Below, one piece after another: positions 6,305-37,900 of a stretch of DNA of 38,385 nucleotides. The notes beneath the pieces are model-generated. The model was not told where the DNA came from, ran no database searches, and saw only the letters and a list, made by a program, of their open reading frames with translations. Both the position numbers and the translations under genes were made by a program. Numbering within the stretch: the first letter of the stretch is position 1; each line of letters begins with the position of its first letter. The DNA is from Promethearchaeota archaeon (GTDB taxonomy: Archaea > Asgardarchaeota > Lokiarchaeia > Sigyniarchaeales > SOKP01): positions 1 to 38,385 of the forward strand of contig JBHLON010000031.1 of assembly GCA_048940445.1 (NCBI GenBank), read 5' to 3'.

Positions 6305-6961
6305 TCATATATATAAACTATTGGTTTCTTTTTGATATTTTATCTTACCTAATTGAAGTAGATGTAGCAAATATACAAAATCTTCAAATATTTCCATTTG
6401 ATCTTTATCTATCTCGAAAATATCTTCAAATCTGCATGGCAATTTCCCCTTGATTCTTTCAAGATAAAGAAACATTTTCTCAGTAAAGTTTTGGCGAGTA
6501 ATTTCTAATAAAAATTCGGAATTTATTTTCTGACGCTTTAAGTGCTCGACTTCAATTATTTTATTTCTTTCTTTGGAAAATTTCTTATCAGACTCTACTA
6601 AAAAATTAATGGAAATCGATTCAATAGTAAATACTCTTCTACAACAAGCATCAAATAATAAAGAAATATCTTGATCACTTGGCTTTAACTCTAAAAAATT
6701 AAAGAAGAGCTTGTCATTTTCTAGAAGTTTTAGAAAGGACTTTAATTCCTCAAATTTTTGGTTTAAAAGGAAACATGCTTCTTTATATAAGGATGAATAT
6801 TTATCAATATTTTCCATATTAAGCGAATCTTTAAGATCTTGAAAAATAGGATTAAGTTCAAAACTTAACAGACTTAATTTTCCTGATAATATTTTGCTTT
6901 TTACGTTTTCGATCTTTTGGCTTATTTGATTGTAATAATCTGTAAAATTAATCATGATCAT
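6305..6961 (-). CDS. kleisin (ScpA/Nse4-like)
   Basis: N-terminal helical ACFLLNQKFEEL and C-terminal winged helix FEDIF...FVYLLHLLQLGKIKYQ. ATGA overlap with the SMC stop codon. Confidence 0.75.
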   Translation of the reverse strand: MIMINFTDYYNQISQKIENVKSKILSGKLSLLSFELNPIFQDLKDSLNMENIDKYSSLYKEACFLLNQKFEELKSFLKLLENDKLFFNFLELKPSDQDISLLFDACCRRVFTIESISINFLVESDKKFSKERNKIIEVEHLKRQKINSEFLLEITRQNFTEKMFLYLERIKGKLPCRFEDIFEIDKDQMEIFEDFVYLLHLLQLGKIKYQKETNSLYI

Positions 6962-9900
6962 TTTTCTTTTAAAATTTTTGGTTTAAAAATTGTAGAAACC
7001 TCTTTTCTACCTATCCTGGCCACACCAATTAATTTATCAGCTAATAAATATAAGTTAGTCGATGATTTGGGTAGAAACATAAGCAATTGTACTGGATTTT
7101 TTTCTAGTGTAGCTTTTATCATTTGATAGGACGCTTCTGAATTCTTATCATCTAAAAACATGCCAGCCTCATCAAACATACAAAGTGGTGAGGGTTTAAT
7201 TTCCTGCAGTGAGAGAATTAGGCAAATTGAAATCATAGAGATTTGCCCTCCACTAAGAGCCTTAAAAGACTTTAATTGCTCTTTTGTAGTTGCTGCCTTA
7301 ATTTCTATCCCTAAATCTTCAAAAGAGCCGACTAAATTAAGGGAACAAAAGGACTTTATATTAGCTGATTCGAATTTTTGGTTAATCTTTAATTCTAAAT
7401 CATTTAAAGTTGTTCTAAATTTTTCAAAATAAGTATCTTCAAGCTTAGTTTCAGTCTTAATAGCCGATTTGATATCTTTTTCTAAGCTTTTTTGATGTTT
7501 TGCAATCTCTTTCATACTAGATATTATTTGTTCCTTTTCAATTAAAATTGAATCATCCACATCTAAATATTTTAACAATTTTTTGTCTAATCTTAAAATA
7601 TCTTCTTTAATATCAGCAATAGGGCGTATTTTAATCTCTTCATTTAATACGGCACTACTTATCTCAGAATTTATTCTCTCTAAATCTTTTTCATGAGATG
7701 ATAATTCTTGTTCGAGTGTAGTCTTCTTTAAAAATTCTTGTTCTATTTTTATTTTAATATCTATATGATCCTTTTCAATATCTGATTTTTCATGTTCAAT
7801 CTCTAGCTTTTGCTTCCTTAATTTTGAGATATCAGCTTCTCTCTCATCTATATCATCCTCAATTGATTCTAAGTTCTTATATATTTCAAAGGCCTTTTTA
7901 TCTGAGCTTTGAAATCTTTCCTTCTTCGCTTCATAATCTTGTTTTAAAATTTTTAATTTTTCTTTTTGTTGTGTGAGTTTTTCATTGACTTCCTGTATTT
8001 GTTGCATATTCATATTCAATTTCGTATCCCATTTTTTTAAATCTTCATTGTAGAAATGTAACTCATCTGGTATCTCCTCAATTCTATCGTTTAATTTAAA
8101 AATTTCTGGATCCCTCTGAGACTCTGAGCTCTGAATCTGTCTTTCTGTGTCAGATATTTCATTTTGGAGTTTGTTTATATCAGTTTCAAGATTATGCACA
8201 AGATCATAGAGATGATTCTTTTTAGAGGTTAATCTTTGCTTTTGATTAAAGTTATACAATAAATCATTAAATGCTTCCTTTTTCTCGTATAGATCTTTCT
8301 GATTTTGTTCAATTGCAGAATATTTAACTTTTAAGTCAGAAATTCTTTTATTTATAGATTCGATCTCAGATTCTAATCTAGTGAGTTCTTCTTTTAGCGT
8401 ACTAACGCTAAGTAAACCCTTTAAATGTTTTTGAAAAGGGGTTTCATAGACGTAATTATAAGAGATTAACTGTTCACCTTTTAAAGTCACACATTTTCCC
8501 CTAAAATTTTGCTTCTTATAGATCTGGATAGCTGAATAGTAGTCCTCAACAACTAAACAATTTCTTACTTTAGAGTATATTACTTTTTGAATATCTATAT
8601 CATTGTTGACTACTCTTATTAACTCTGCTAGATAACCAATAACGTTATCAGCAGAAAATTCAGGTAAAGGGCGAATATCAAGCTTTTTAGATATATAAAT
8701 ATTACAGTACGCATTATATTTGTTCTTTATTTTGTTCAATAGATTTAAGGTATCCCAATCATTAACAACGAAACTAAATAATAATTTTTCTCCCAAAACA
8801 GATTCAATTGCGTAACTTAGTTTATCATCATATTGCAAAAATTCAATTATAGGGCCCTTAACTTTGTCAGATAATTCTCTTCTTTCAATTTCTTCTTTTA
8901 ATATATTAATACTAGTTGGAAATATTACTTTTCGTTCTCTTAAGGAAACTTGTAGTTTTTTAAAATTTTCTAATAGATTGGTTCTCTTAAACTGCAAATT
9001 ACTCAATTTTTTCCCTAATTCGAAAAGGTCTTTGGAATAGTTTTTTATTCTCTCATCAATGTCAAAAAGTAAATCTGAAGTAGGATTATCGAGAAACCAT
9101 TTATTTTTTTCCAATTTGTGTTCAATATCTTTGAAACTTTGGAAAATTTCATTGATTTCTGAATTGATCTCCTTTATCTTTATTTCATTCTCTTCAATCT
9201 TATTATTATAAGCTCCTTTCTTAGAAATTAAATTACGATATTCTCTTAAAAAATCTTCATTTTGTTTTAATTTCTTCCCCAGTCTATTTTGTTCTTCTAT
9301 TAACTCATCAATCTTTTCCTTCAGAGAAAGAATCTCCTTCTGAATTAGATTTATCTCATCATCTAATTTTTTACTATGACTTTCGGTGTTTTCAAAAGCT
9401 TTTTCAGAATTTATAATTTTTAGATTTAAATTATCTAATTCCTTTTTCGCTAATATTTTTTCTTTTTCCCAAATTTGAATTTTTTCAATTAGACTTTTTT
9501 TCTTATATGTTAATTGACCTAAATCTTTTGATAATACGTTAATATTTTCTTCTATCTCATTTAGCTTTGCTTTTTTTTCTAAAAGAGCAGTCTCGTATGC
9601 TTCAGATATTTTTTTAATGTCATTGATGGATATTTGCTGATCTTTTATTTTTTCTTTCAAATAAATTATGTTCTCTTCTAACTTTTGCCTATTTGCAAAT
9701 AATAATTCATCTGTAAAACTTTCCTTTTTTTCAATAAGCTTATGTTTTTCTTCTAATCGCTGGATTTTAGGTTGTAAAAGATTCAGATTAACGTTTAGGG
9801 TATTTTGCCGGCTTAATATGGATTGAAATTCTTGATTTAAATTAAGAATTCCTCTTTTTTGAAGTAAAATTTCATCTCTAAGCCCTTTCAGTCCAATCCC

Positions 9901-10389
9901 TTCTTCTAAGAATGCACAAAGTTCGATCGGTTTTAGATTTTTAATCACATCAATTTTTCCTTGACTTACAAAAGCAAATTGATTATCAGGATTTATCCCT
10001 AGGTTAGAAATTATCTCTTGTATATAATTTGCATGAACTCTATTAAAACTATTGTCAGTAGTTCTTTCTATCTCAAAGTAAGGAGAGTGAGCCCTCACTA
10101 CAATTCTTCTTATCTTAATTATTTCTTCATTTTTTTGTATATGAACTTCAACCATCGCATGATCTTGCCCATTCCTAATAAAATCAGACCATCTTTTATA
10201 TCTTTCATCCCTTTCATTACTTCCAAGAGCAAATTTGACTGCTTGAAATATTGATGTTTTTCCTGACCAATTTGGTCCAATTATAATCACAAATTTTGAA
10301 TCCTCGAATTTTACTTCATCTCTTTGAAAACTCAAAAAATTTTCCAGAATAACTTTTTTTAAATAAATCCTTTCAGTTTCAGTAGAAAT
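6958..10389 (-). CDS. smc: SMC ATPase, Smc5/6-like (about 1143 aa, probable ATT start)
   Basis: IYLKKVILENFLSF N-terminal strand upstream of the ORF-track start, Walker A GPNWSGKT, Q-loop FVSQG, long coiled coils, hinge VKGPIIEFL...AIESVLG, signature LSGGQ, Walker B/D-loop FDEAGMFLD. Confidence 0.92.
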   Translation of the reverse strand: MSTETERIYLKKVILENFLSFQRDEVKFEDSKFVIIIGPNWSGKTSIFQAVKFALGSNERDERYKRWSDFIRNGQDHAMVEVHIQKNEEIIKIRRIVVRAHSPYFEIERTTDNSFNRVHANYIQEIISNLGINPDNQFAFVSQGKIDVIKNLKPIELCAFLEEGIGLKGLRDEILLQKRGILNLNQEFQSILSRQNTLNVNLNLLQPKIQRLEEKHKLIEKKESFTDELLFANRQKLEENIIYLKEKIKDQQISINDIKKISEAYETALLEKKAKLNEIEENINVLSKDLGQLTYKKKSLIEKIQIWEKEKILAKKELDNLNLKIINSEKAFENTESHSKKLDDEINLIQKEILSLKEKIDELIEEQNRLGKKLKQNEDFLREYRNLISKKGAYNNKIEENEIKIKEINSEINEIFQSFKDIEHKLEKNKWFLDNPTSDLLFDIDERIKNYSKDLFELGKKLSNLQFKRTNLLENFKKLQVSLRERKVIFPTSINILKEEIERRELSDKVKGPIIEFLQYDDKLSYAIESVLGEKLLFSFVVNDWDTLNLLNKIKNKYNAYCNIYISKKLDIRPLPEFSADNVIGYLAELIRVVNNDIDIQKVIYSKVRNCLVVEDYYSAIQIYKKQNFRGKCVTLKGEQLISYNYVYETPFQKHLKGLLSVSTLKEELTRLESEIESINKRISDLKVKYSAIEQNQKDLYEKKEAFNDLLYNFNQKQRLTSKKNHLYDLVHNLETDINKLQNEISDTERQIQSSESQRDPEIFKLNDRIEEIPDELHFYNEDLKKWDTKLNMNMQQIQEVNEKLTQQKEKLKILKQDYEAKKERFQSSDKKAFEIYKNLESIEDDIDEREADISKLRKQKLEIEHEKSDIEKDHIDIKIKIEQEFLKKTTLEQELSSHEKDLERINSEISSAVLNEEIKIRPIADIKEDILRLDKKLLKYLDVDDSILIEKEQIISSMKEIAKHQKSLEKDIKSAIKTETKLEDTYFEKFRTTLNDLELKINQKFESANIKSFCSLNLVGSFEDLGIEIKAATTKEQLKSFKALSGGQISMISICLILSLQEIKPSPLCMFDEAGMFLDDKNSEASYQMIKATLEKNPVQLLMFLPKSSTNLYLLADKLIGVARIGRKEVSTIFKPKILKEK

Positions 10390-10397
10390 CTTGGTAA

Positions 10398-10403
10398 CCT
10401 CCT
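10398..10403 (-). promoter_or_regulatory. Shine-Dalgarno AGGAGG, 8 nt upstream of the ATT codon opening the SMC frame
   Basis: Minus strand reads AAAAGGAGGTTACCAAG-ATT-TCT-ACT. Confidence 0.7.
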
Positions 10404-10408
10404 TTTAT

Positions 10409-11656
10409 TTATCTCCCAAAGCTCTGTCTTATGTGGTCAATTTTCTTTTTTGCTTTTTCTAAATGAATTTGGGCTCTATTTGGAGAATTATTTAAAATAA
10501 AAGGATAATTTGCTAGTAATTTTCTTTCATTCTCTTCAAGAATCTCATTTTTATTTAATTTATCAATAATTATGACTAGCTCTGTATAATTCTTAGAAGC
10601 CGCATTTTCATACAATTGGCTTAGCATAAATTCAGAAATAGGTTGATCCTGAATCTCACTCACAATTGACTGTAACTTGGTAAAAGCTAACTCTTTGTCT
10701 TTAAAATGCTTTTCTGTAGCTAGTGATTCCCGATCTAAATCCTCAAACTCATCTCGAAATCTCGGATCCTTATAATAAATTGATGGTTTGAATTCCCCTG
10801 AATCGATTAAGTTGGTAATAACATCTGTTATTTCATTAGATGTTTTATTTAGCTCAAAATTAAGAAAATGCTTAAAAATAGCTAACTTAATAAGGTTCTT
10901 AATGTCTAAAATTTCCCAATCTCTAGTATAATTGATTAGTGTACTTATATCAAAAACAATCTTTGGCTTTCCTTCGGAATAATTCCTTAAAAACACCTCT
11001 CTCTCTTTAATACCTATAGGGGGAACTCTAAGGACTAAATCAAAGATCTGGTAAACATTATATGAATTTTCCCTTATATCATTAAAATTTTCATTTAACC
11101 ACACTAAAATGCTTCCATTTTTTAAATATTCAGAATTATACCTTTTTTGAAAAGTTAAAAAGACTTTAAGCAAATTTCTCCCCTTAAATAAATTAGCTGG
11201 TAATTCGCTTTGATTTATTAATATCAATCTGTTTAATTTTACTTTCTCAAAATTTTCAGGATATGTTTTAGACTCATTCTGAACTCTTTCTTTATGTTGG
11301 GTTATGTTCAACATGTTTTGAAAGATTAAATTAAAATTGTTTAAAAATTCTGATGGTGATCTTAATATTTCAAAATAATCTAACTCTATAAAATCTAAAT
11401 AGTAGTTTTTTGATATTAATCTCAAAAAGTTAGAAATGTCTGTACCTGGGGAAATATTAACTAGAAGTAAACCATTTGGCTCAAAATATGGCTGAATTTC
11501 TGAATATTCATCACTGGTTAACAAAACCTTAAAATAATTCATAATATCATTATACTTCTCCCGAAGAAAAATATCTTCTTTCTCAACTTTAATATTCGAA
11601 GGCAGGATTATCCGATAATAACTAATCTTTTTTAGTTCATTTTCAGAGTTTTTCAT
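10409..11656 (-). CDS. degenerate (probably inactive) AAA+ ATPase-like protein
   Basis: PNGLLLVNISPGTD sits at the Walker A position without GKT. FDLVLRVPPIGIKEREVFL...DISTLINYTRDWEILDIKNLIKLA resembles the classic AAA lid (FD..I.vplP....R..IL...TeG.sgaDi..L...A). Confidence 0.6.
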   Translation of the reverse strand: MKNSENELKKISYYRIILPSNIKVEKEDIFLREKYNDIMNYFKVLLTSDEYSEIQPYFEPNGLLLVNISPGTDISNFLRLISKNYYLDFIELDYFEILRSPSEFLNNFNLIFQNMLNITQHKERVQNESKTYPENFEKVKLNRLILINQSELPANLFKGRNLLKVFLTFQKRYNSEYLKNGSILVWLNENFNDIRENSYNVYQIFDLVLRVPPIGIKEREVFLRNYSEGKPKIVFDISTLINYTRDWEILDIKNLIKLAIFKHFLNFELNKTSNEITDVITNLIDSGEFKPSIYYKDPRFRDEFEDLDRESLATEKHFKDKELAFTKLQSIVSEIQDQPISEFMLSQLYENAASKNYTELVIIIDKLNKNEILEENERKLLANYPFILNNSPNRAQIHLEKAKKKIDHIRQSFGR

Positions 11657-23379: not shown

Positions 23380-24882
23380 TTGTCTGCTCCGTTAGAAACA
23401 CTATTAAGAGATTCTCGAATTGATTTAGTATTATCTAGAATTGAAAAAGATCCCCTAGTAATCAAGGAAGTGATTGAAAATCTAGAAAGTGAAATTCGAT
23501 CAGTTAAATTCAACGCAATATTTGTTCTAGGAGAATTGGGAGAGAAATCTATAAATGCTGTTCCAGAATTAATGAGTTGTCTCTTAGATAATGATTGGAG
23601 TATTTGTCGTGAAGCTGCTCGAACTTTAGGGAAGATTGGAAGCAATGTAAAGGATGCTGTACCATATCTTTCGAGCTTATTAAAGAGTGAATATGACTCT
23701 ATCCGTAAAGAAGCTGCTATAGCTTTAGGTAAGATCAAAAATCCTACGCCTGAATCATTAAAAAGCCTAAATGAAGCATTGAAGGATAAGAATGAAGAAG
23801 TTCGAACAGAAGTAGTAAATGCTCTTAGTAATATTGGTCCTGAAGCAAGTGATTCAATCCCTTATTTGATGAAAAGCTTAAAAGACATAAGTTGGGCAGT
23901 TAGAACTGCTTCAGCTCAGGCTATAAAACAAATTGGTAAAGGATCTGTTAAAGCTCTGCCAAGTTTGCTCTCAACGCTTGATGATAAAGATTGGAGAGTA
24001 AGATATAGAATTGTTACCACATTAGCTGATTTGGGAGAAGCAGCGATACCAAGTTTATTAGATATGCTAAAACATAAAAATCGGATTATAAGAAAGGAGG
24101 CTATTGAAACGCTAGGAGAGATAAAACAATCTGATCCTAAAGTTATTGAGAATTTGTATTCTTTATTAAGAGACCAAAATGAAATAATCCGCGGTAAGGC
24201 TGCTGATGCCCTTCGTTCGATTGGAAGAGATTCAATACCTCTACTAATTAAGTCTTTCAATGAAAAACTGAAATTTTCATTCAGTTGGTTATTATATTGG
24301 ATACTACTTTTTTTAATGATTCCATATATGTTATTTTTATCTTCAGATTTTTTTATAATCTTCTTATTCGCTATATCTCTAATAATACCTCTAATTACTA
24401 CCCCCTATAGTATAATTAAATATTTTATAACTGACAACAGACGTAAAATAATTATTATTTCCTCAATTGGAGGCATCGGGACAGATGCTAAAGAAGCTAT
24501 CCCGTTTATGATTGAAATAATGCAAAACGATAAAAAGCCCTTACGAGTTGAGGCAGCAAGAGCGTTAGGTAGTATTGGAACTAGTTCAGAGGGTGCATTA
24601 CATGCTCTTCAACAAGCTTTAAAAGATAAATCGGCAATCGTTCGTCGAGAGGCGGCATTATCTATAGGTAAAATGGGCAAATTTGCTGAAAAGGCTATTC
24701 CATCATTGATGAATGCTTTAAATGATAAAAATCCTGATGTTAGATGGAGGTCAACTGAAGCATTAGCAAGAATTGGCGTAACTACACCAGAGATTATATC
24801 AAGCTTGAAAGCTCTTATACATGATGAATGTGATTATGTTTGTGAATCTGCGATTACTGCTTTGGATAGCTTAGAACAGTAA
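23380..24882 (+). CDS. HEAT-repeat (PBS-lyase-like) protein with an internal hydrophobic insertion
   Basis: Many repeats of the form AIPxLxxxLxDxxxxVRxxAAxALGxIG. Hydrophobic segment at about residues 298-348. Confidence 0.9.
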   Translation: MSAPLETLLRDSRIDLVLSRIEKDPLVIKEVIENLESEIRSVKFNAIFVLGELGEKSINAVPELMSCLLDNDWSICREAARTLGKIGSNVKDAVPYLSSLLKSEYDSIRKEAAIALGKIKNPTPESLKSLNEALKDKNEEVRTEVVNALSNIGPEASDSIPYLMKSLKDISWAVRTASAQAIKQIGKGSVKALPSLLSTLDDKDWRVRYRIVTTLADLGEAAIPSLLDMLKHKNRIIRKEAIETLGEIKQSDPKVIENLYSLLRDQNEIIRGKAADALRSIGRDSIPLLIKSFNEKLKFSFSWLLYWILLFLMIPYMLFLSSDFFIIFLFAISLIIPLITTPYSIIKYFITDNRRKIIIISSIGGIGTDAKEAIPFMIEIMQNDKKPLRVEAARALGSIGTSSEGALHALQQALKDKSAIVRREAALSIGKMGKFAEKAIPSLMNALNDKNPDVRWRSTEALARIGVTTPEIISSLKALIHDECDYVCESAITALDSLEQ

Positions 24883-29169: not shown

Positions 29170-31702
29170 TTAATATAAATAAATTCCAGTAATAGAATTT
29201 ATGTTTTCTTTTATTTGCTCAGGTGTTCCTATTGCAATCACTTTTCCCCCTTTTGGCCCTCCTTCTGGACCCAATTCAATAATGTAATCCATATAAGAGA
29301 GAATTTCGGGGTCGTGTTCAATAATTACAACACTGTTTCCTTCCTTTACTAATTGATCTAACAATTCCATTAGCTTTATAGCATCATAAAATGATAAACC
29401 CACCGTAGGTTCGTCTAATATATATAAAGATTTTCCCTTACGGACTTTTCCAAGTTCTCTAGCTAATTTAATTCGTTGAGCTTCACCTCCACTTAACGTT
29501 GGAGCAGGTTGCCCTAGTGTAATATATCCCATGCCTATCTCATCAAGAATCATTAACATATTATAAATTTTAGGTTCTGATCTAAATAAATCTAATGCTT
29601 CCTTTACTGTCATGTCAAGTAACTCTGCGATTGTTTTACCTTTATATTTAACTTCTAAAATTTCTGGTTTATATCTTAAACCTTTACATTCTTTACAAGG
29701 TATGGTAAAACTACTTAAAAACGATATTTGTAAATCTTGAGCACCACAGCCTCTACAAACGGGACACCTTCCATTATCAGAATTATATGAAAAATGTCCT
29801 GCTGAATACTTCCTCTTTCTTGCTTCTGGAGTTTTAGCATAAATATTCCTTATTTTATCCCAAATACCAATAAATGAAGAAGGAGTGGAAGTTCGCACTC
29901 TAGATATGGGCTTTTGATTAACAACAATTACACCATCCAAATTTTCCCATCCTTCTACATTTCCAGAAAATTCTGTTAGATCATCATCGTTACCTTCGTT
30001 ATCTTCATTTTCTTTTGCCAAAACCTTCTTTGTTATCCTAGAAAAATGAGGTTTTAAAAGTGGTATCAATGTATCTAACACTAAAGAACTCTTCCCTGAT
30101 CCTGAAACTCCCGCAATTCCAACCATCATACCCAGAGGAATTTTAACATTAACGCTTTTAAGATTATTTGTGTTAGCATTTTTAATAATTATAAATTTAG
30201 TATTATCATCAACCAACTTTTTTTGTTGAGTTGATTTACTGGGTAATTTTATTTTGCCTACTAAAAATTGTCCTGTATACGAATCATCAATTTGCTTAAT
30301 CCCACCTAAAGATCCTCGATAAACTATTTTTCCGCCGTTTTTTCCTGCTCCTGGACCTATATCAATAATTTCATCAGCGATGTTGATAAAATGCTTATCA
30401 TGTTCAACAATAATAACAGTATTTCCTAAATTTTTAAGTTTTTTTAAAGTATTAATTAGAGACTCTTTTTCTTTTTCATGCAGACTCATACTGGGTTCAT
30501 CTAGAATATATATAAGAGAATCGAGACCACTATCTAAATTAGTCATAAGAGACAATCTTTGTAATTCTCCTCCACTCAAGGTGGGCAATGAGCGATTTAG
30601 ATGTAAATATGATAAACCTACATTAATCATACGCTTTAAACTACTGACTAAGTTTTTCATCATTGAATTACCTTGAGGAGTTTTTATATCCTTATTTCCC
30701 AAATTTTCCAAGAATTCAATCAACTCGTCAATGGTCATTTCTGCTAATTCACCTATATGCTTCCCACTAATCTTAATTTCTCTTGCTTGTTCATTAATAC
30801 GGTAGCCGTTACATTCCTTACACTTTTTCATACTCATATATTCCTTAGTGATTTTACTTCTCCGATATGCACTTTTACTTTCGAATATAGCTCTCTCCAA
30901 ATGTGGAATTATTCCTTCAAATTCTCTTTCTAATTCACCACTAAATCTTTTTGATTCCCATTTAAACTGCAGCTTTTTTCCACTTCCATAAAGATATACC
31001 TTCTTAATCTTTTCTGGTAAATCTTTATAAGCTGTTTTAATGTCAAAATCATAAAAACTTGGTAGTTGTTCAACAAATTTGATTTGATCAGCAAAACAAC
31101 CAGAGCCTGCTCTTGTAATTTCTATTAGATTTCTATTATAATCTTGAACAATCATTTCCTCATTTAGATGCATCGTATATCCCCTTCCTTTGCAAGCCAA
31201 ACACAATCTGGCCTCTTCGATATGCTCAAGAGAGATTTCCAGATGGCTCATTAAAAGAGAAATACTTAATTTGTTTACGCTCTGTTATTATTCCACAAAT
31301 TTCACATTCTAGAGTAGTTTCATCTATAGGTTTCTTGCAAATTGGACAAACTAAAATCCCTTCTGTTGCATAAATCATACGAAGATATCCATATAATCCT
31401 GTTCTAGTTCCCACTGTAGAACGAGGGTTAAAGACACGTGTAGTTCTTTGTTCTACTGCCACAGTGGGACTAAGCCCTTCTATTATATCGAAAGGTTTCT
31501 CATCTTCAAACTTGGGAGGGAATCCAATTGATTGAAGGTATCTATTCATTCCTTCCTCAAAAATGATATCAAAAGCTAAACTGGACTTACCTGAGCCCGA
31601 TACTCCAGTAATGAGGGTAATCTTCCCTTTTGGAATTTCTAAACTAATATTCTTCAAATTATGGATTCTGGCTCCAACAATTTTTATTTCATTCATTCTC
31701 AT
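29170..31702 (-). CDS. uvrA: class II UvrA-like ABC ATPase (DrrC/UvrA2 type), split by a 31-nt candidate intron; 833 aa after splicing
   Basis: GARIHNLKNI, GVSGSGKSSL twice, NPRSTVGT, LSGGE twice, YILDEP twice, CxxC zinc modules. ORF-track pieces 31226..31702 and 29170..31251 join in frame if 31206..31236 is removed. No UvrB-binding insertion is apparent. Confidence 0.9.
31206..31236 (-). other. candidate bulge-helix-bulge (tRNA-splicing-endonuclease type) mRNA intron, 31 nt
   Basis: mRNA reads CAU-CUGG-AA^A-UCUCUCUUGAGCAUAUCGAAGAGG-CCAG-AU^U-GUG. It has a 4-bp central helix, two 3-nt bulges and flanking helices. The canonical cuts give CCA UCU GGA AUG UGU (P-S-G-M-C). Confidence 0.8.
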
Positions 31703-32054: not shown

Positions 32055-33071
32055 ATGGAAGAAATAGCAATTCAAACAATTAATTTAACCAAAAAATTTA
32101 AAGACCTCGTTGCGGTTGATCACGTATCGGTTAAAGTAAAGACAGGTGAGATTTTCGGATTATTAGGTCCCAATGGTGCAGGAAAAACTACTTTAATACG
32201 TATGTTATGTACATTAGCGGAACCAACGGAAGGTACTGCCATGATCGCAGGTTATGATTTACGACATGACGAAAATAAGATTAGAGAGAATATAGGATTA
32301 GTATCAGAAAAGATGATAATGTATGATATGCTAACACCCCGAGAAAACTTGAAACTTTTTGGAAAGCTGTATAATATTCCAAAGAAAAAGCTTAAAGCAC
32401 GAATTGATGAATTATTGAAGTTAGTAAAAATGCAGAAATGGGGTGATAAAATGATCAGTACTTTTTCAACTGGAATGAAGCAACGAATAAATGTAATTCG
32501 AGCTTTATTGAATGAGCCTCATATCTTATTTTTAGATGAACCAACACTGGGGTTAGATCCTCAATCAACAAGTGAATTACGTTCATTTATTAAGGAGATA
32601 AATAATAAAAACAAAACTACTATTGTTTTAACGACTCACATGATGGTGGAAGCAGATCTATTATGCGATCAAATCGCCATTATTGATTTTGGTAAAATAA
32701 TTGCTTTAGACACTTCTGAAAATCTAAAACGTATGGTAATAGGAGCTGACGTCTCATTGATGGAAATAGAGATAGCAAATTTAGACAATGAGATGGTATC
32801 AATTCTCCAAAAACTTGCAGTTGTTCAACAATTAACAAGGATTTCTGACACTAAAATTAAAATCCAAGCAAAAGGAGATGATGCTTTTGATGATGTAATC
32901 GATATTGTTCGAAAATTAAATGGAAAGATTACATATATCAAAGATTTGGAACCAACTTTAGAGGATGTCTTCTTACACATGACTGGACATGAAGTAAGGG
33001 ATGAACCAAGTGAGAGTAATTTAAGTAATGTTCGTCGTTTTCATCGTCGTCGAGCAAGTAGAGTAAGATAG
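32055..33071 (+). CDS. ABC-2 type multidrug exporter ATP-binding subunit (DrrA-like)
   Basis: GLLGPNGAGKTT, FSTGMKQR, LFLDEPTLGLDPQS, LTTHMM.EAD.LCD, PTLEDVFLHMTG. Confidence 0.92.
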   Translation: MEEIAIQTINLTKKFKDLVAVDHVSVKVKTGEIFGLLGPNGAGKTTLIRMLCTLAEPTEGTAMIAGYDLRHDENKIRENIGLVSEKMIMYDMLTPRENLKLFGKLYNIPKKKLKARIDELLKLVKMQKWGDKMISTFSTGMKQRINVIRALLNEPHILFLDEPTLGLDPQSTSELRSFIKEINNKNKTTIVLTTHMMVEADLLCDQIAIIDFGKIIALDTSENLKRMVIGADVSLMEIEIANLDNEMVSILQKLAVVQQLTRISDTKIKIQAKGDDAFDDVIDIVRKLNGKITYIKDLEPTLEDVFLHMTGHEVRDEPSESNLSNVRRFHRRRASRVR

Positions 33072-33082
33072 GTGATAAAAAA

Positions 33083-34237
33083 GTGAAAATAATTAGTACA
33101 TTAAGGCATAGTATTTGGATCTGTTGGAAAGACTTACTTGAGTTTAGGCGTAGCAAACTGCGTTTGGTAATGTTAGTTTTGATGCCCTTGTTTATGATGG
33201 TAATGACCGGTTATATATTTCCCTCCAATAACACAATTTCTAACATTCCTGTTGCTGTAGCTAATCAAGATAATGGCCTATATGGTACAATATTTTATAA
33301 TGCTTTAAAGACTGCTAATAATAATACACACATGATGGTGTTGAGCAATGCTAAAGATTATGATTCTATCAAATTAGACATTCAAGATGGAAAAATTAGT
33401 GCTGGAATTTTGATTGGAGTGAACTTTTCCTCTGAATTAATGTCAGGCCATCAAGGGATCATAACAGTTGTTTTGGATCAAACTAATCCACAGATGTCTC
33501 TAATGGTAGAAACTGCATTAAATGAATTAATTAAACAATTAGGAACACAATACGCTATGCTTAATTTAAGTGCCACCTATGCACAAGTAGTTCCTTTTAA
33601 TCCTACATTTAAGGGAATTTATCCAGGTAATCCCAGTTATTTTGAATTTATGGCTCCTGGTATCATGACGATGGTGGTAATGATGGCATTAATGACGGGA
33701 TTACCACACGCAATCTCATATGAGAAGGACATAGGTACTCTAGATGGGATGTTAACAGCCCCGATTAAGAAAATATCGATAATACTTGGAAAATCACTTG
33801 CTCAGACTATCCGTGGATTAATACAAGGCATAATTGTCCTTATCTTAGCAATTCTGTTATTTAACGTTGTTATCAATGGGAGTTTATTGCTAGTGTTTCT
33901 TGTCCTTTTCTTAAATGTATTCAGTTTTGTTGGAATGGGAATCTTAATTACATCATTTACAGGGAAAGAAGAGACGGCGACCATGATGATGATGACAATT
34001 ATGTTTCCCATGATGTTTTTAAGCGGTGTATTTTTCCCAATTCAACAAATGCCAGATTTCATGCAAATAATTTCAAAGGCTCTTCCGTTAACGTATGCTG
34101 CAGATGCAATGCGGAAAGTAATGATTTTGGGTGCGGATATTTCTGCTATATCACTTGATTTTATCTTTTTAATTGTTTTTGGTGTTATCCTTTTATTAAT
34201 TGCAATACCAATGTTCAAAAGGGCAATGAAAAGATAA
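33083..34237 (+). CDS. ABC-2 type exporter permease
   Basis: N-terminal TM, extracellular IPVAVANQD domain, YFEFMAPG, EKDIGTLDGMLTAP, FLSGVFFPI, PLTYAADAMR. Confidence 0.92.
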   Translation: MKIISTLRHSIWICWKDLLEFRRSKLRLVMLVLMPLFMMVMTGYIFPSNNTISNIPVAVANQDNGLYGTIFYNALKTANNNTHMMVLSNAKDYDSIKLDIQDGKISAGILIGVNFSSELMSGHQGIITVVLDQTNPQMSLMVETALNELIKQLGTQYAMLNLSATYAQVVPFNPTFKGIYPGNPSYFEFMAPGIMTMVVMMALMTGLPHAISYEKDIGTLDGMLTAPIKKISIILGKSLAQTIRGLIQGIIVLILAILLFNVVINGSLLLVFLVLFLNVFSFVGMGILITSFTGKEETATMMMMTIMFPMMFLSGVFFPIQQMPDFMQIISKALPLTYAADAMRKVMILGADISAISLDFIFLIVFGVILLLIAIPMFKRAMKR

Positions 34238-34477: not shown

Positions 34478-35140
34478 CTATATCCCATTGACTTTTTGTA
34501 TTATAAAAAAAATTGAACGAAAACTTGTTGGATTTTTTCTATAAGCATTAATTTCTTTTATATATCTTTTTTGGTTTTTAAACTTTTTAGGGATATCAAT
34601 TAACTTTTCTATTTGAAGTTCTAATGGCAAAAAATAATCCTTCCCCCATGCATCATCAGGTAATTGAAAGCAATTTATTAATTTATAACCACATCTGGCT
34701 ATCATTTTTAATTTTTTTTCTTTATCACTCAAATCATCATGCACAACAATAAATCCATTACTTTTAAGCACTTTATCCCATTCTTTCAAAGCTCTCTCAA
34801 AACCGATAAATTGCATTACACCTTCAGCCCAAATAATATTAAAGCTCTCATTGGGAAAATGCATATCTAATAAAGAGCAATTAAGAGCCTCCACACGATC
34901 TGATAAATTTAATTTTTTGATTTTTTCGTTAAACTTATCCAAAGCTTCTTGATCAATATCTATTCCAATTATCTTCCCATTACTCAATTGCGCCAATTCT
35001 ATAGCTGGTATTCCCGAACCACAACCTATATCAAGTATATAAGGATTATCAATCTTTGGTAGCATTTTAAATGCTTTTCTAGTATATGGAAGAAAATTTT
35101 TACGAAGTTCTTCGATTTTAATCTCTATCTCATTTGTCAT
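34478..35140 (-). CDS. class I SAM-dependent methyltransferase
   Basis: ILDIGCGSG, IIGIDID, FPNESFNIIWAEG, VLKSNG. Confidence 0.92.
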   Translation of the reverse strand: MTNEIEIKIEELRKNFLPYTRKAFKMLPKIDNPYILDIGCGSGIPAIELAQLSNGKIIGIDIDQEALDKFNEKIKKLNLSDRVEALNCSLLDMHFPNESFNIIWAEGVMQFIGFERALKEWDKVLKSNGFIVVHDDLSDKEKKLKMIARCGYKLINCFQLPDDAWGKDYFLPLELQIEKLIDIPKKFKNQKRYIKEINAYRKNPTSFRSIFFIIQKVNGI

Positions 35141-35171
35141 ATATTTCCCATCAATTAGACTCAGTATCTTT

Positions 35172-36179
35172 CTAACTATAATACTTTTTTAATGCTCTAA
35201 TAGCATTTAAGGTGATCCACTTACTTTCTTTACCCTTATGTTCAATATTTACCTGAACACGTCCATTAAAACTTTTTTCTAATATCCATCTCCCTTCTTG
35301 AGTTTGTTTTGATAAAATTAAATCAATAGCATCTTGCATTCTATCATCCTTATACCCTAATTTTAATAAAGTGTTTAAGATTTCTAAAGCATCTATTTTC
35401 CATAATAAAGGAAAGCCAAATTGAGTCCATTCCTCCTTTGCTACAGAATTTTTTTCATGACTTTTTTTATAAACCCTATGATCAAGGATATATTCAACTG
35501 CTTTCTGAATAAAATTATCAATTTCGCTTGATCGTTTATTTTGTGGAATTTCAGCTAACGCCTTCAAACTTTTTACGACACCCATATGACATGTATGCTT
35601 TCCCCAACAACTTTTATGTTTTTCATAAGGCCACCCTTTAGGTGCTTTACTTATACTATCATCTAATCTTTGATATTGAACAATCCAATTAATAGCACGT
35701 TGAACTCGAAAGTCATCTAAATATCCAAATTTGATTAAAGCCCAAATCATATTTCCATTTAGGCAAGGGATTACTTGTTCATGGACACCCCCTTTCTCTT
35801 CATTTCCATGGACAGAGAAACCTCCACTATTACGATCTTGAGAATTTTTGAGAATAAATTCACATGTTTCTTTAATTCTATTATTATTTCCGTCTGCATT
35901 AAGTTCTGCTAAGATGATAAGAGTCCATACAGTGCCCTTATACTTTGTATATACATAAAAATTGTCTCGATTCACCCAGTATCCTCCTTCCTTTTGCTTG
36001 CTCAGAATTTTAGATACAATCATACTACTCATGATTTTTTGTTTGGCATCTTTAACTTCTTTAGAAGCAGCTGTCTTACCTAAAATGTCTACTAATGTAA
36101 AATATCTAACTGAAGGATTATTTTCTTCTAATAACCAATCTAATGGGTTTTTATTCAACATAGATTCCCAATCGCTCAA
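35172..36179 (-). CDS. prenyltransferase/squalene-cyclase-repeat (alpha/alpha barrel) protein of unknown function
   Basis: DWLLEENNPSVRY, ILSKQKEGGYW, QRLDD and ILSKQTQEGRW (QxxxGxW repeats), FGFP, SKWITLNA. TTG start at 36179 follows AGGTGA. Confidence 0.75.
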   Translation of the reverse strand: MSDWESMLNKNPLDWLLEENNPSVRYFTLVDILGKTAASKEVKDAKQKIMSSMIVSKILSKQKEGGYWVNRDNFYVYTKYKGTVWTLIILAELNADGNNNRIKETCEFILKNSQDRNSGGFSVHGNEEKGGVHEQVIPCLNGNMIWALIKFGYLDDFRVQRAINWIVQYQRLDDSISKAPKGWPYEKHKSCWGKHTCHMGVVKSLKALAEIPQNKRSSEIDNFIQKAVEYILDHRVYKKSHEKNSVAKEEWTQFGFPLLWKIDALEILNTLLKLGYKDDRMQDAIDLILSKQTQEGRWILEKSFNGRVQVNIEHKGKESKWITLNAIRALKKYYS

Positions 36180-36195
36180 GATTTTCACCTTAAAA

Positions 36196-37338
36196 TTAAA
36201 TTTTTATTCTTGATAAATTTTTAAATAAAATTTCTTCATTTTTTACAATATGTAAAACTTTCTTATGTAGTTCATTCAAATTAATTTTTTGTAAACATTC
36301 ACTATTATATTCTTCAAGAGTAATTTTTAGTGATTGAGCAAACAATGTCCAATTTTTCCTTGAAGCATCTAGAATAGGCAAGCAATCTTCGATTATCTTT
36401 ATTTCTTCATTTTTCCATGCCATAGGACCTTTCTTTATATCTGGAATTTGTAGAAGTTCCTCAAGAAAATTTTTATACAAATTTCGAAAACATGCACCTC
36501 CTGTACCCCACGTCTCTATGTATCCGTAAATAAGATCAAACATTATACTTGCTAAATAAGTTTCATGTCCCTTTGAATCAATCACCTTCTTATTCAATTT
36601 ATCATCCCATGTGAGAATAGAACTAGCAAATCTCCTTAACCCTTGTATCCCGTTATAATTCATCGAAGATCGAAGCATATTATTTACAACTTTCTGAATC
36701 GCGAGTTTTATTCCTGCTGCTAGTGGTGGATGTTTACCATCAGGACGACGTGTCATAAAAAATTGAGTATTCTGTGGATACAAAAATTTAGGGCCATAAG
36801 TTGAACTTCTCGCCGTCTTTAGGATACTAATTGGAACTGATTGAAAATCTTCGAATTCTGTATCACCTACATAAGCTATATTCTTCTCCTCATCAAATCC
36901 TGCTAATGTTATCGCATGTCCACCAAAATGAGCTTCATCAAGCTGATTAACAAAATTTTCATATGGCATATAGGCAATATCTACCCGTATTATAAGAGGC
37001 AGATTTTGTTTAATAAGCCTCTTTGATTCTTCCCATGCTTTATCAGCACTAGTAAACGATTGTTTTCTTAAAGAAATACCTAATAATCGACAAGCTAAAG
37101 ACTCTTGGTCTATTGTCCCTTGTTTACCACCAAGAAAAAAAGGTATTTTTGATTCAGGGATAAATGAAACACTCTCAGTGGTATCAAAAAATCCAAATCC
37201 TAGTGTTGCATCCAAACCAAATGCCATAGCTTCTGACATATTAAAACCAAGAAATTCGAAAAGGTCTCTCATAGCGGATGACTCACAATGTACACCGACA
37301 CGGTGGATAAAATTATTTATTATAATCTTTTGGGTCAA
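36196..37338 (-). CDS. BtrH N-terminal (papain-like C39-type) domain protein with DUF4872-like C-terminus
   Basis: HCESSAMRDL, SEAMAFGL, HFGGHAITLAGFD, YVGDT (Cys-His-Asp set), GTGGACFRNLY. Confidence 0.85.
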   Translation of the reverse strand: MTQKIIINNFIHRVGVHCESSAMRDLFEFLGFNMSEAMAFGLDATLGFGFFDTTESVSFIPESKIPFFLGGKQGTIDQESLACRLLGISLRKQSFTSADKAWEESKRLIKQNLPLIIRVDIAYMPYENFVNQLDEAHFGGHAITLAGFDEEKNIAYVGDTEFEDFQSVPISILKTARSSTYGPKFLYPQNTQFFMTRRPDGKHPPLAAGIKLAIQKVVNNMLRSSMNYNGIQGLRRFASSILTWDDKLNKKVIDSKGHETYLASIMFDLIYGYIETWGTGGACFRNLYKNFLEELLQIPDIKKGPMAWKNEEIKIIEDCLPILDASRKNWTLFAQSLKITLEEYNSECLQKINLNELHKKVLHIVKNEEILFKNLSRIKI

Positions 37339-37900
37339 TTTGACCGGCCCCCTTTTGTATTTCTTCTAAAATGATTTCCAAAAATTCAATATCTGTCTGT
37401 AAAATCTTTATTGGGTGAATAAACAGACCTCTGACATTTAATGGTTGATTAATATTACTGTTTAGCATGTCTTCTAATTCTCTTTTGTGTTTTTTTATTT
37501 TATTTAAAGAATTTGAAAAGACTTCTAATTGTTCTTGTTTTGAGAGAAAAGGAAGCATTGAAAAGGCCATATAGAAATCAGGATCATTTCTGCCTTCATA
37601 TTCATTTAGGGTGTTATAAATTTTCTTCTTTAAATTATATATTCCTTTTTCAGTAATCTGGTAGATCTTACGAATCCTGTTATCAACTTCTTCAGTATAA
37701 GAATCTACTAATCCATTCTCTTCTAGGTTTCCTAAATCACTATAAATCGAAGACATTCCAATTTGAGTCCAAGCCCTCATACCTCTCTCTTCTATCCTCT
37801 GATTAAGACTATAAGCATGAGATGGGAATTCAGAGATTAAGCCTAAAATCGCAAATTCTCGATGGTTTATAGAATAATCTTTATTGATAATATTATTCAT
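37313..37900 (-). CDS. PadR-family transcriptional regulator
   Basis: ILGLISEFPSHAYSL, SSIYSDLGNLEENGLV, RKIYQITEKG. Confidence 0.92.
   Translation of the reverse strand: MNNIINKDYSINHREFAILGLISEFPSHAYSLNQRIEERGMRAWTQIGMSSIYSDLGNLEENGLVDSYTEEVDNRIRKIYQITEKGIYNLKKKIYNTLNEYEGRNDPDFYMAFSMLPFLSKQEQLEVFSNSLNKIKKHKRELEDMLNSNINQPLNVRGLFIHPIKILQTDIEFLEIILEEIQKGAGQIDPKDYNK

Follow-up and report, generated by a model that had tools for sequence, protein, structure and literature searches.

The question raised by this locus is whether a broken gene is a decayed copy or is made whole by splicing of its mRNA. The window, i.e. the whole stretch of DNA analyzed here, is the 38,385-nt contig C63 of a 3.64-Mb genome (G000, 30% GC) of a Lokiarchaeia-type Asgard archaeon. 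On its minus strand, two open reading frames, 31702-31226 (158 aa) and 31251-29170 (693 aa), together make up one UvrA-like gene, here named uvrA2; jointly they cover 2533 nt, which corresponds to an 833-codon frame plus 31 nt. An earlier note on this DNA had read the 31 nt as a bulge-helix-bulge (BHB) intron and the gene as a spliced mRNA rather than a pseudogene.

Identity of the interrupted gene

The gene had previously been called uvrA-like. The family assignment stands and could be refined: by its sequence, the intron-bearing gene is a class II UvrA paralogue (PMC9328131) without the UvrB-binding domain. Exon 1 (31237..31702, minus strand) comprises codons 1-155 plus one base, carries the first Walker A motif and the first cysteine pairs, and corresponds to positions 2-144 of the PRK00349 profile. 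Exon 2 (29170..31205, minus strand) begins within a Met codon ahead of a CxxC motif, runs to the protein end and corresponds to positions 278-937, so that profile positions 145-277 are missing. The protein aligns to UvrA2 (2vf7) over a single stretch. It shares with the class II proteins UvrA2, DrrC and Ecm16 (PMC9328131; PDB 2vf7, 7sh1) a length of about 830 aa and the absence of the UvrB-binding domain, and neither uvrB nor uvrC is annotated among the genes of the window. Class IIa proteins are said to be without the cysteine pairs in the first zinc region, whereas the Asgard protein, whose predicted role is DNA protection, retains them. A canonical uvrA (968 aa) is located elsewhere in the genome, on contig C107. 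The paralogue is probably dispensable, and selection for its splicing would therefore be weaker than in core genes.

Structure of the insert and predicted splice register

If kept, the insert (31206..31236, minus strand) shifts the frame and brings a UGA (31228-31226) into the frame of exon 1, so that unspliced RNA would encode a 158-aa stub. All of the following elements lie on the minus strand. The exon strand CUGG (31239..31242) and the intron strand CCAG (31208..31211) form a central 4-bp helix, flanked by a 5' bulge AAA (31236..31238) and a 3' bulge AUU (31205..31207). The intron itself forms a hairpin (31212..31235) of 5 bp plus 4 bp with a 5-nt loop, whose stem covaries between alleles, and an outer exon-exon stem (31202..31245), in which CAU (31245-31243) pairs with GUG (31204-31202), encloses the motif. 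This is a BHB under the strict definition: two 3-nt bulges on opposite strands, a 4-bp central helix and flanking helices. The helix, bulges, stems and UGA positions described earlier were all reproduced when recomputed, and the inner stem UCUCU/AGAGG, described as extendable, gains 4 bp more past a 1-nt bulge.

The minimum-energy fold of the site includes the central helix, the first bulge and the inner stem; it favours a different exon-exon pairing that widens the second bulge, and the strict BHB is thus not the single minimum-energy fold. When the insert was shuffled, an equally strict BHB arose at the site in 0.04-0.12% of 200,000 trials. No Rfam match was found anywhere in the window, and an insert of 31 nt is too short for a group I or group II ribozyme core.

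The predicted cuts lie behind the second base of each bulge, following the rule given in PMC2738675. Excision of 31236..31206 by this rule yields an 833-aa frame with FSFNEPSGMCLACKGRG. The frame is reopened by every 31-nt deletion whose first base lies from 31250 to 31226; because an open frame alone fits many such deletions, the splice register rests on orthologs. The spliced gene reads EPSGMC, which matches most of the 110 intron-less alleles described below. Moreover, Met follows Gly at the junction codon, as the BHB register has it, in 76 of 85 intron-less rows, and the three neighbouring registers give Leu, which a few orthologs have at that codon. The cut rule applied in the earlier note thus leads to an intact 833-aa frame that agrees with the intron-less orthologs. 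The split Met codon immediately precedes the CxxC that we take to open the second zinc module, an assignment in agreement with the alignment to 2vf7.

Comparison of uvrA2 alleles

The comparison covered 120 distinct uvrA2 alleles from genomes of the genus, GTDB contigs and metagenomes. Of these, 110 are free of an insert and 10 carry one of eight different 30-31-nt inserts, all at the same nucleotide. Because seven other, different inserts occupy this nucleotide in other assemblies, an assembly artefact is very unlikely. The alignment of orthologs that had been suggested provided both intron-less alleles and stems that covary with compensatory changes. Across seven inserts, 92.9% of the structure cells are paired and 6 cells have changes on both sides, a pairing level that slid controls (31-44%) and all of 500 shuffles failed to reach; the set consists of only seven related sequences, and the shuffle count is therefore not a probability. 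One mismatch in the central helix is present in each of the alleles G023 and L273.

The exon sequence around the site is uniform in the intron alleles, with GGA-ATG-TGT in 9 of 9 rows; among the intron-less rows GGA occurs in 32 of 85 and TGT in 45 of 85. Comparison with the sister genomes G017 and G019 gave dN/dS values of 0.05-0.06 for exon 1 and 0.10-0.11 for exon 2, indicating purifying selection on both. A full-length, endonuclease-encoding form of the intron was found in none of the 120 alleles, among which L202 and L203 are truncated or chimeric.

Probable splicing and alternative readings of the insert

Judged from its sequence, the insert is very probably a genuine BHB intron in the mRNA of a protein-coding gene. 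In the transcript, exon CUGG would pair with intron CCAG between the two 3-nt bulges; an EndA of the (αβ)2 type would cut behind the second base of each bulge, as expected from established archaeal biochemistry, and RtcB would join the exons to give the 833-aa class II UvrA. We hold such cutting and ligation of the uvrA2 mRNA to be highly likely. Besides an intact RtcB, the genome encodes two EndA paralogues (at C3:34241 and C62:31241). The Tyr-His-Lys triad is complete in one of them and the catalytic His is missing from the other, a combination that fits the (αβ)2 type. EndA of this type is reported to cut relaxed motifs (PMC5829648). The proposal of a spliced mRNA is supported by the intron-less orthologs, the covarying stems, the dN/dS of 0.05-0.11, the encoded EndA and RtcB, and inserts of the same format elsewhere in the genome, in conserved genes that include purA, mvk and the single Sm gene that was found. 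The further suggestion that the intron links expression to EndA/RtcB activity found nothing in its favour; in its pattern the intron resembles a mobile element that the host tolerates more than it does a regulator.

Three other readings were weighed. The insert might instead divide the gene in two, supplying a stop, a GAGG word resembling a Shine-Dalgarno sequence and a restart codon, with the two translated pieces reassembling. The restart candidates are TTG/ATG at 31206-31204, and an upstream ATG at 31251 likewise reads through. In agreement with such a split, a TTG or ATG stands at the 3' junction in all alleles, in most of them preceded at 5-8 nt by a purine-rich word, and the break falls between zinc modules. 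However, the start-like codon is explained by the split Met codon, and the purine-rich word, being one arm of the covarying stem, would be sequestered. Two independently translated pieces also leave unexplained why intron bases are complementary to exon positions -6..-3, and why the same format lies within the purA P-loop, a rubredoxin CxxC and the Sm fold. We regard a split gene as very improbable.

Slightly less probable still is that a hairpin insertion killed a dispensable uvrA paralogue and stays unspliced. The canonical uvrA elsewhere in the genome would allow such a loss, the branch leading to the window's allele is long (0.21, compared with 0.035-0.065 in the sisters), and this allele deviates at 14 of 365 conserved columns. 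Against decay, intron-less alleles deviate at similar or larger numbers of conserved columns (4-30), dN/dS is about 0.1 or below on both sides of the insert, eight diverged inserts retain one fold with open exons, and the format recurs in purA, mvk, Sm, metG and uL11. Translational bypassing, of which T4 gene 60 is an example, or programmed frameshifting over the hairpin is the least probable reading: a hairpin with a stop codon does follow a GGA codon, but the landing codon is unmatched (GGA versus AGA or AAA), the required shift would differ between the 30-nt and the 31-nt inserts that share the site, and the BHB geometry is repeated in all verified genes.

Further BHB introns in the same genome

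The earlier note had suggested that such introns may be hidden genome-wide as apparent frameshifts, and this was borne out. The genome was scanned for BHB motifs whose excision joins reading frames, the candidates were compared with orthologs, and only ortholog-checked cases were counted as verified. In addition to uvrA2, six introns were verified in this way: one each in the Sm, mvk, GH38 mannosidase and purA genes, and two in fwdA. The Sm/Lsm gene, the only one found in this genome, contains a 31-nt frameshifting BHB intron (C26:3343-3313, minus strand; L035); in each of the 38 relatives for which a match exists, the gene is open. The fwdA gene (C47:62960-66616) has two 30-nt BHB introns, at C47:64002 and C47:63579; because the latter is in frame and without a stop, it is invisible to ORF finders. 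All seven verified introns are 30 or 31 nt long despite their unrelated sequences, and all lie in conserved motifs, with exon 1 ending in G-R-R and the 3' strand of the helix starting with C. Several are common to some relatives in diverged form.

Four more introns, in the rubredoxin, metG and uL11 (two) genes, were recognized by motif restoration. By these sequence comparisons the genome carries at least seven verified and about 11 probable BHB mRNA introns. The census is a lower bound, because strict scans missed plausible cases (rubredoxin, metG, uL11); taken as such a bound, the intron density is low, with a dozen or so affected genes. A BHB together with frame joining yields false positives when orthologs are not consulted: the candidates C100:13946 and C136:2421 have both features and were rejected as ordinary coding sequence by ortholog comparison. 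Loose BHB scans of the genome gave no excess above shifted controls. A motif-free comparison with 360 kb of G017, a relative from the same genus (about 319 matched segments), which is blind to introns common to both genomes, revealed no additional insert in a coding gene.

In G017, the EF-1alpha gene contains a 33-nt BHB intron within the P-loop codons (L044:7345-7313, minus strand; contig C11), and the EF-1alpha gene of the window's genome is intron-less. ARAGORN found only 21 tRNAs in the whole of the latter genome, 11 of them intron-bearing; many tRNA genes were probably missed because of multiple introns.

Probable movement of the intron between lineages

The intron alleles are dispersed over the uvrA2 tree, requiring at least five changes, and the hypothesis that they form a single clade is rejected (p-AU 4e-10 for exon 2 and 0.002 for exon 1). 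A co-conversion pattern with its breakpoint at the intron was observed in G002, L155 and G010/L171. The G002 allele is a mosaic that is G008-like to codon -82, 97% L155-like from codon -77 to +3, and G008-like again thereafter, with the switch back at about +6. In G010/L171, the intron marks the joint between a foreign exon 1 and an exon 2 with 98% identity to that of the intron-less G034. Identity steps in close pairs of alleles cluster at the intron, with 14 pairs, 13 of which include an intron allele, and with 0-2 pairs at most other positions; these mosaic pairs represent about 3-4 independent events, some of them from single metagenome assemblies.

Additionally, G010 and G031 carry a decayed, intron-less uvrA2 5' half that stops 4 nt short of the insertion point and is fused to grpE-dnaK-dnaJ (L307:1181-1636; L314:1-180). 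A simple 5-kb insertion was considered for G010; it is undercut by G031, which has the same scar and the same grpE-dnaK-dnaJ genes and no new uvrA2 within 8 kb.

In the window's own uvrA2, a search for a long imported tract found none. Its exons match those of other intron alleles exactly for only about four codons on each side, which could reflect a short tract or structural constraint. The same tract test was merely suggestive at fwdA and negative at Sm.

Nuclease-like genes and a proposed route of spread

The gene directly upstream of uvrA2 in L155 runs off the contig at its 5' end and encodes a product of 565 aa or more, which contains two copies of an HH...CxNCH repeat, both invariant. 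A 157-aa remnant of this tandem-HNH-like protein precedes uvrA2 in L177, and its C-terminus is present at the contig edge in L173. The gene or its remains thus accompany three of eight intron alleles and none of 108 intron-less alleles (Fisher p 2e-4, with the related alleles non-independent). The other five intron alleles are without it; these include the window's allele, near which neither an HNH-like nor a LAGLIDADG-like gene or remnant was found. At the corresponding place upstream of uvrA2, the window has a drrA/drrB-like ABC transporter pair (32055..34237, plus strand).

With the L155 protein as query, Pfam HNH was matched at E 0.065 only; within the family, 16 of 33 aligned members match it at E up to 0.1, the best at 6e-6. 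The structural model of the L155 protein has a pLDDT of 93, and fold searches with it gave no significant match. The family is present in 52 of 151 genomes of the order. In one case the family member lies ahead of an mvk gene that shares its intron site with mvk of the window's genome, and a BHB intron lies within about 1.5 kb at only 1 of 30 other loci of the family.

From these data, we think it reasonably likely that recombination at the intron site carries the intron from lineage to lineage, with nuclease-driven collaborative homing as the most probable cause. The putative free-standing tandem-HNH nuclease, encoded upstream in some alleles, would cut intron-less uvrA2 at the intron site; the intron would shield the allele that carries it, and repair would copy the intron together with the upstream exon into the intron-less allele. 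The window's allele would then be an intron without its nuclease gene.

The intron may also have spread without a dedicated nuclease, through many losses of an ancestral intron or through ordinary homologous recombination with crossovers in a conserved motif, which we consider the less probable course though a serious one. The inserts are alike, their site lies within a highly conserved stretch, one intron-less pair likewise steps at this position, and exon 1 of the window's allele still clusters with its intron-less sisters. However, the events in G002 and G010 are gains, since there it is the exon tract with the intron that is of foreign origin, and this course leaves unexplained both the distribution of the HNH-like gene (3/8 versus 0/108) and the scar 4 nt from the site.

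Nuclease-driven homing may also be the more general route. On balance, and with a little less assurance than for uvrA2 itself, we favour a genome-wide class of approximately 30-nt, EndA-spliced, ORF-less mRNA introns in Lokiarchaeia whose spread through collaborative homing would involve free-standing nucleases from at least two families, the partner of uvrA2 being of the tandem-HNH type and dragging exon 1 along. Two of the five free-standing LAGLIDADG-like genes in the window's genome adjoin intron genes (GH38 and fwdA).

Some neighbourhoods deserve separate mention. A free-standing LAGLIDADG-like gene stands ahead of the intron-bearing GH38 gene on contig C78 (66101-67430 and 74291-74261), is missing there in five relatives, and the intron-bearing mevalonate kinase gene lies 7 kb from this locus. 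The LAGLIDADG-like gene directly downstream of fwdA is found there in the intron-less G018 too. A frameshifted LAGLIDADG-like gene lies upstream of the intron-bearing EF-1alpha gene of G017, and a tandem-HNH-like gene adjoins an intron-less Sm gene in G008, G009, G016, G028 and G064.

Relation to known systems

The closest named comparison is the BHB intron in the cbf5 pre-mRNA of Desulfurococcales and Sulfolobales (Watanabe 2002; Yokobori 2009, PMC2738675), for which the second-bulge-base cut rule has been confirmed. Both introns are short, ORF-less coding-sequence introns (16-44 nt in cbf5) with BHB boundaries in a conserved motif, with patchy gain and loss and with a hetero-oligomeric EndA in the host. 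The uvrA2 intron differs in its Asgard host and in its gene, and it belongs to a set of at least 7-11 such introns within a single genome, almost all 29-32 nt long; some uvrA2 alleles also have recombination tracts and an adjoining nuclease-like gene. The splicing of cbf5 has cDNA support, whereas that of uvrA2 is predicted here from sequence. PMC2738675 also mentions introns predicted in other genes.

Another EndA mRNA substrate with a BHB is the 5' UTR intron of HVO_1309 in Haloferax volcanii (Schwarz 2020, PMC7714728); it is 46 nt long and lies in an untranslated region, whereas the uvrA2 intron interrupts a reading frame. Apart from its own case, that paper listed, as of 2020, just the cbf5 intron as a BHB intron of an mRNA. 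Asgard tRNA introns, treated in a 2026 preprint (bioRxiv 10.64898/2026.10.13.758758), belong to the same phylum-level group and share the BHB boundaries, the repeated gains and the (αβ)2 EndA. In contrast to our case, the preprint deals with tRNA genes, whose introns have a median length of 22-23 nt, and leaves mRNA untreated; it also leaves the arrival route open. Our literature searches, which covered papers accessible without subscription, found no report of Asgard mRNA introns; within archaeal coding regions, cbf5 was the one gene for which these papers report a BHB intron.

With respect to movement, the named comparison is collaborative homing in cyanophage S-PM2, where F-CphI is encoded next to the group I intron of psbA (PMC6083498), together with trans homing by T4 MobE (PMC2790892, PMC2988022). 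Common features are exon co-conversion, an ORF-less intron placed within a conserved motif, and a free-standing nuclease gene that adjoins the interrupted gene. The uvrA2 intron, in contrast, would be spliced by proteins through a BHB, its host is a cellular archaeon, and its partner is a putative tandem-HNH-like nuclease that is missing from the window's allele.

If these introns are indeed removed, routine splicing of mRNA by tRNA enzymes would be a trait of the archaea most closely related to eukaryotes, and many of the genes that annotations of these genomes mark as frameshifted or truncated would be intact. A nuclease-like gene beside a moving intron suggests how tiny introns spread, and the recombination tracts with the adjoining HNH-like gene offer a testable arrival route of the kind left open by the tRNA-intron study.

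Other genes in the window

Upstream of uvrA2, the padR, btrH-like, alpha-toroid and methyltransferase genes (34478-37900, minus strand) have counterparts that adjoin DUF3795 and uvrA2 in G017. In the window they are parted from uvrA2 by the drrAB-like pair on the opposite strand, and DUF3795 is absent at that place. A gene for a 500-aa HEAT/PBS-repeat protein (23380-24882, plus strand) lies downstream of a branched-chain ABC transporter cluster. At 6305-11656 (minus strand), a gene for an SMC-family ATPase (1125 aa, with a hinge) is located between genes for 415-aa and 218-aa proteins without Pfam matches, a layout that possibly represents a condensin-like or Wadjet-like unit.
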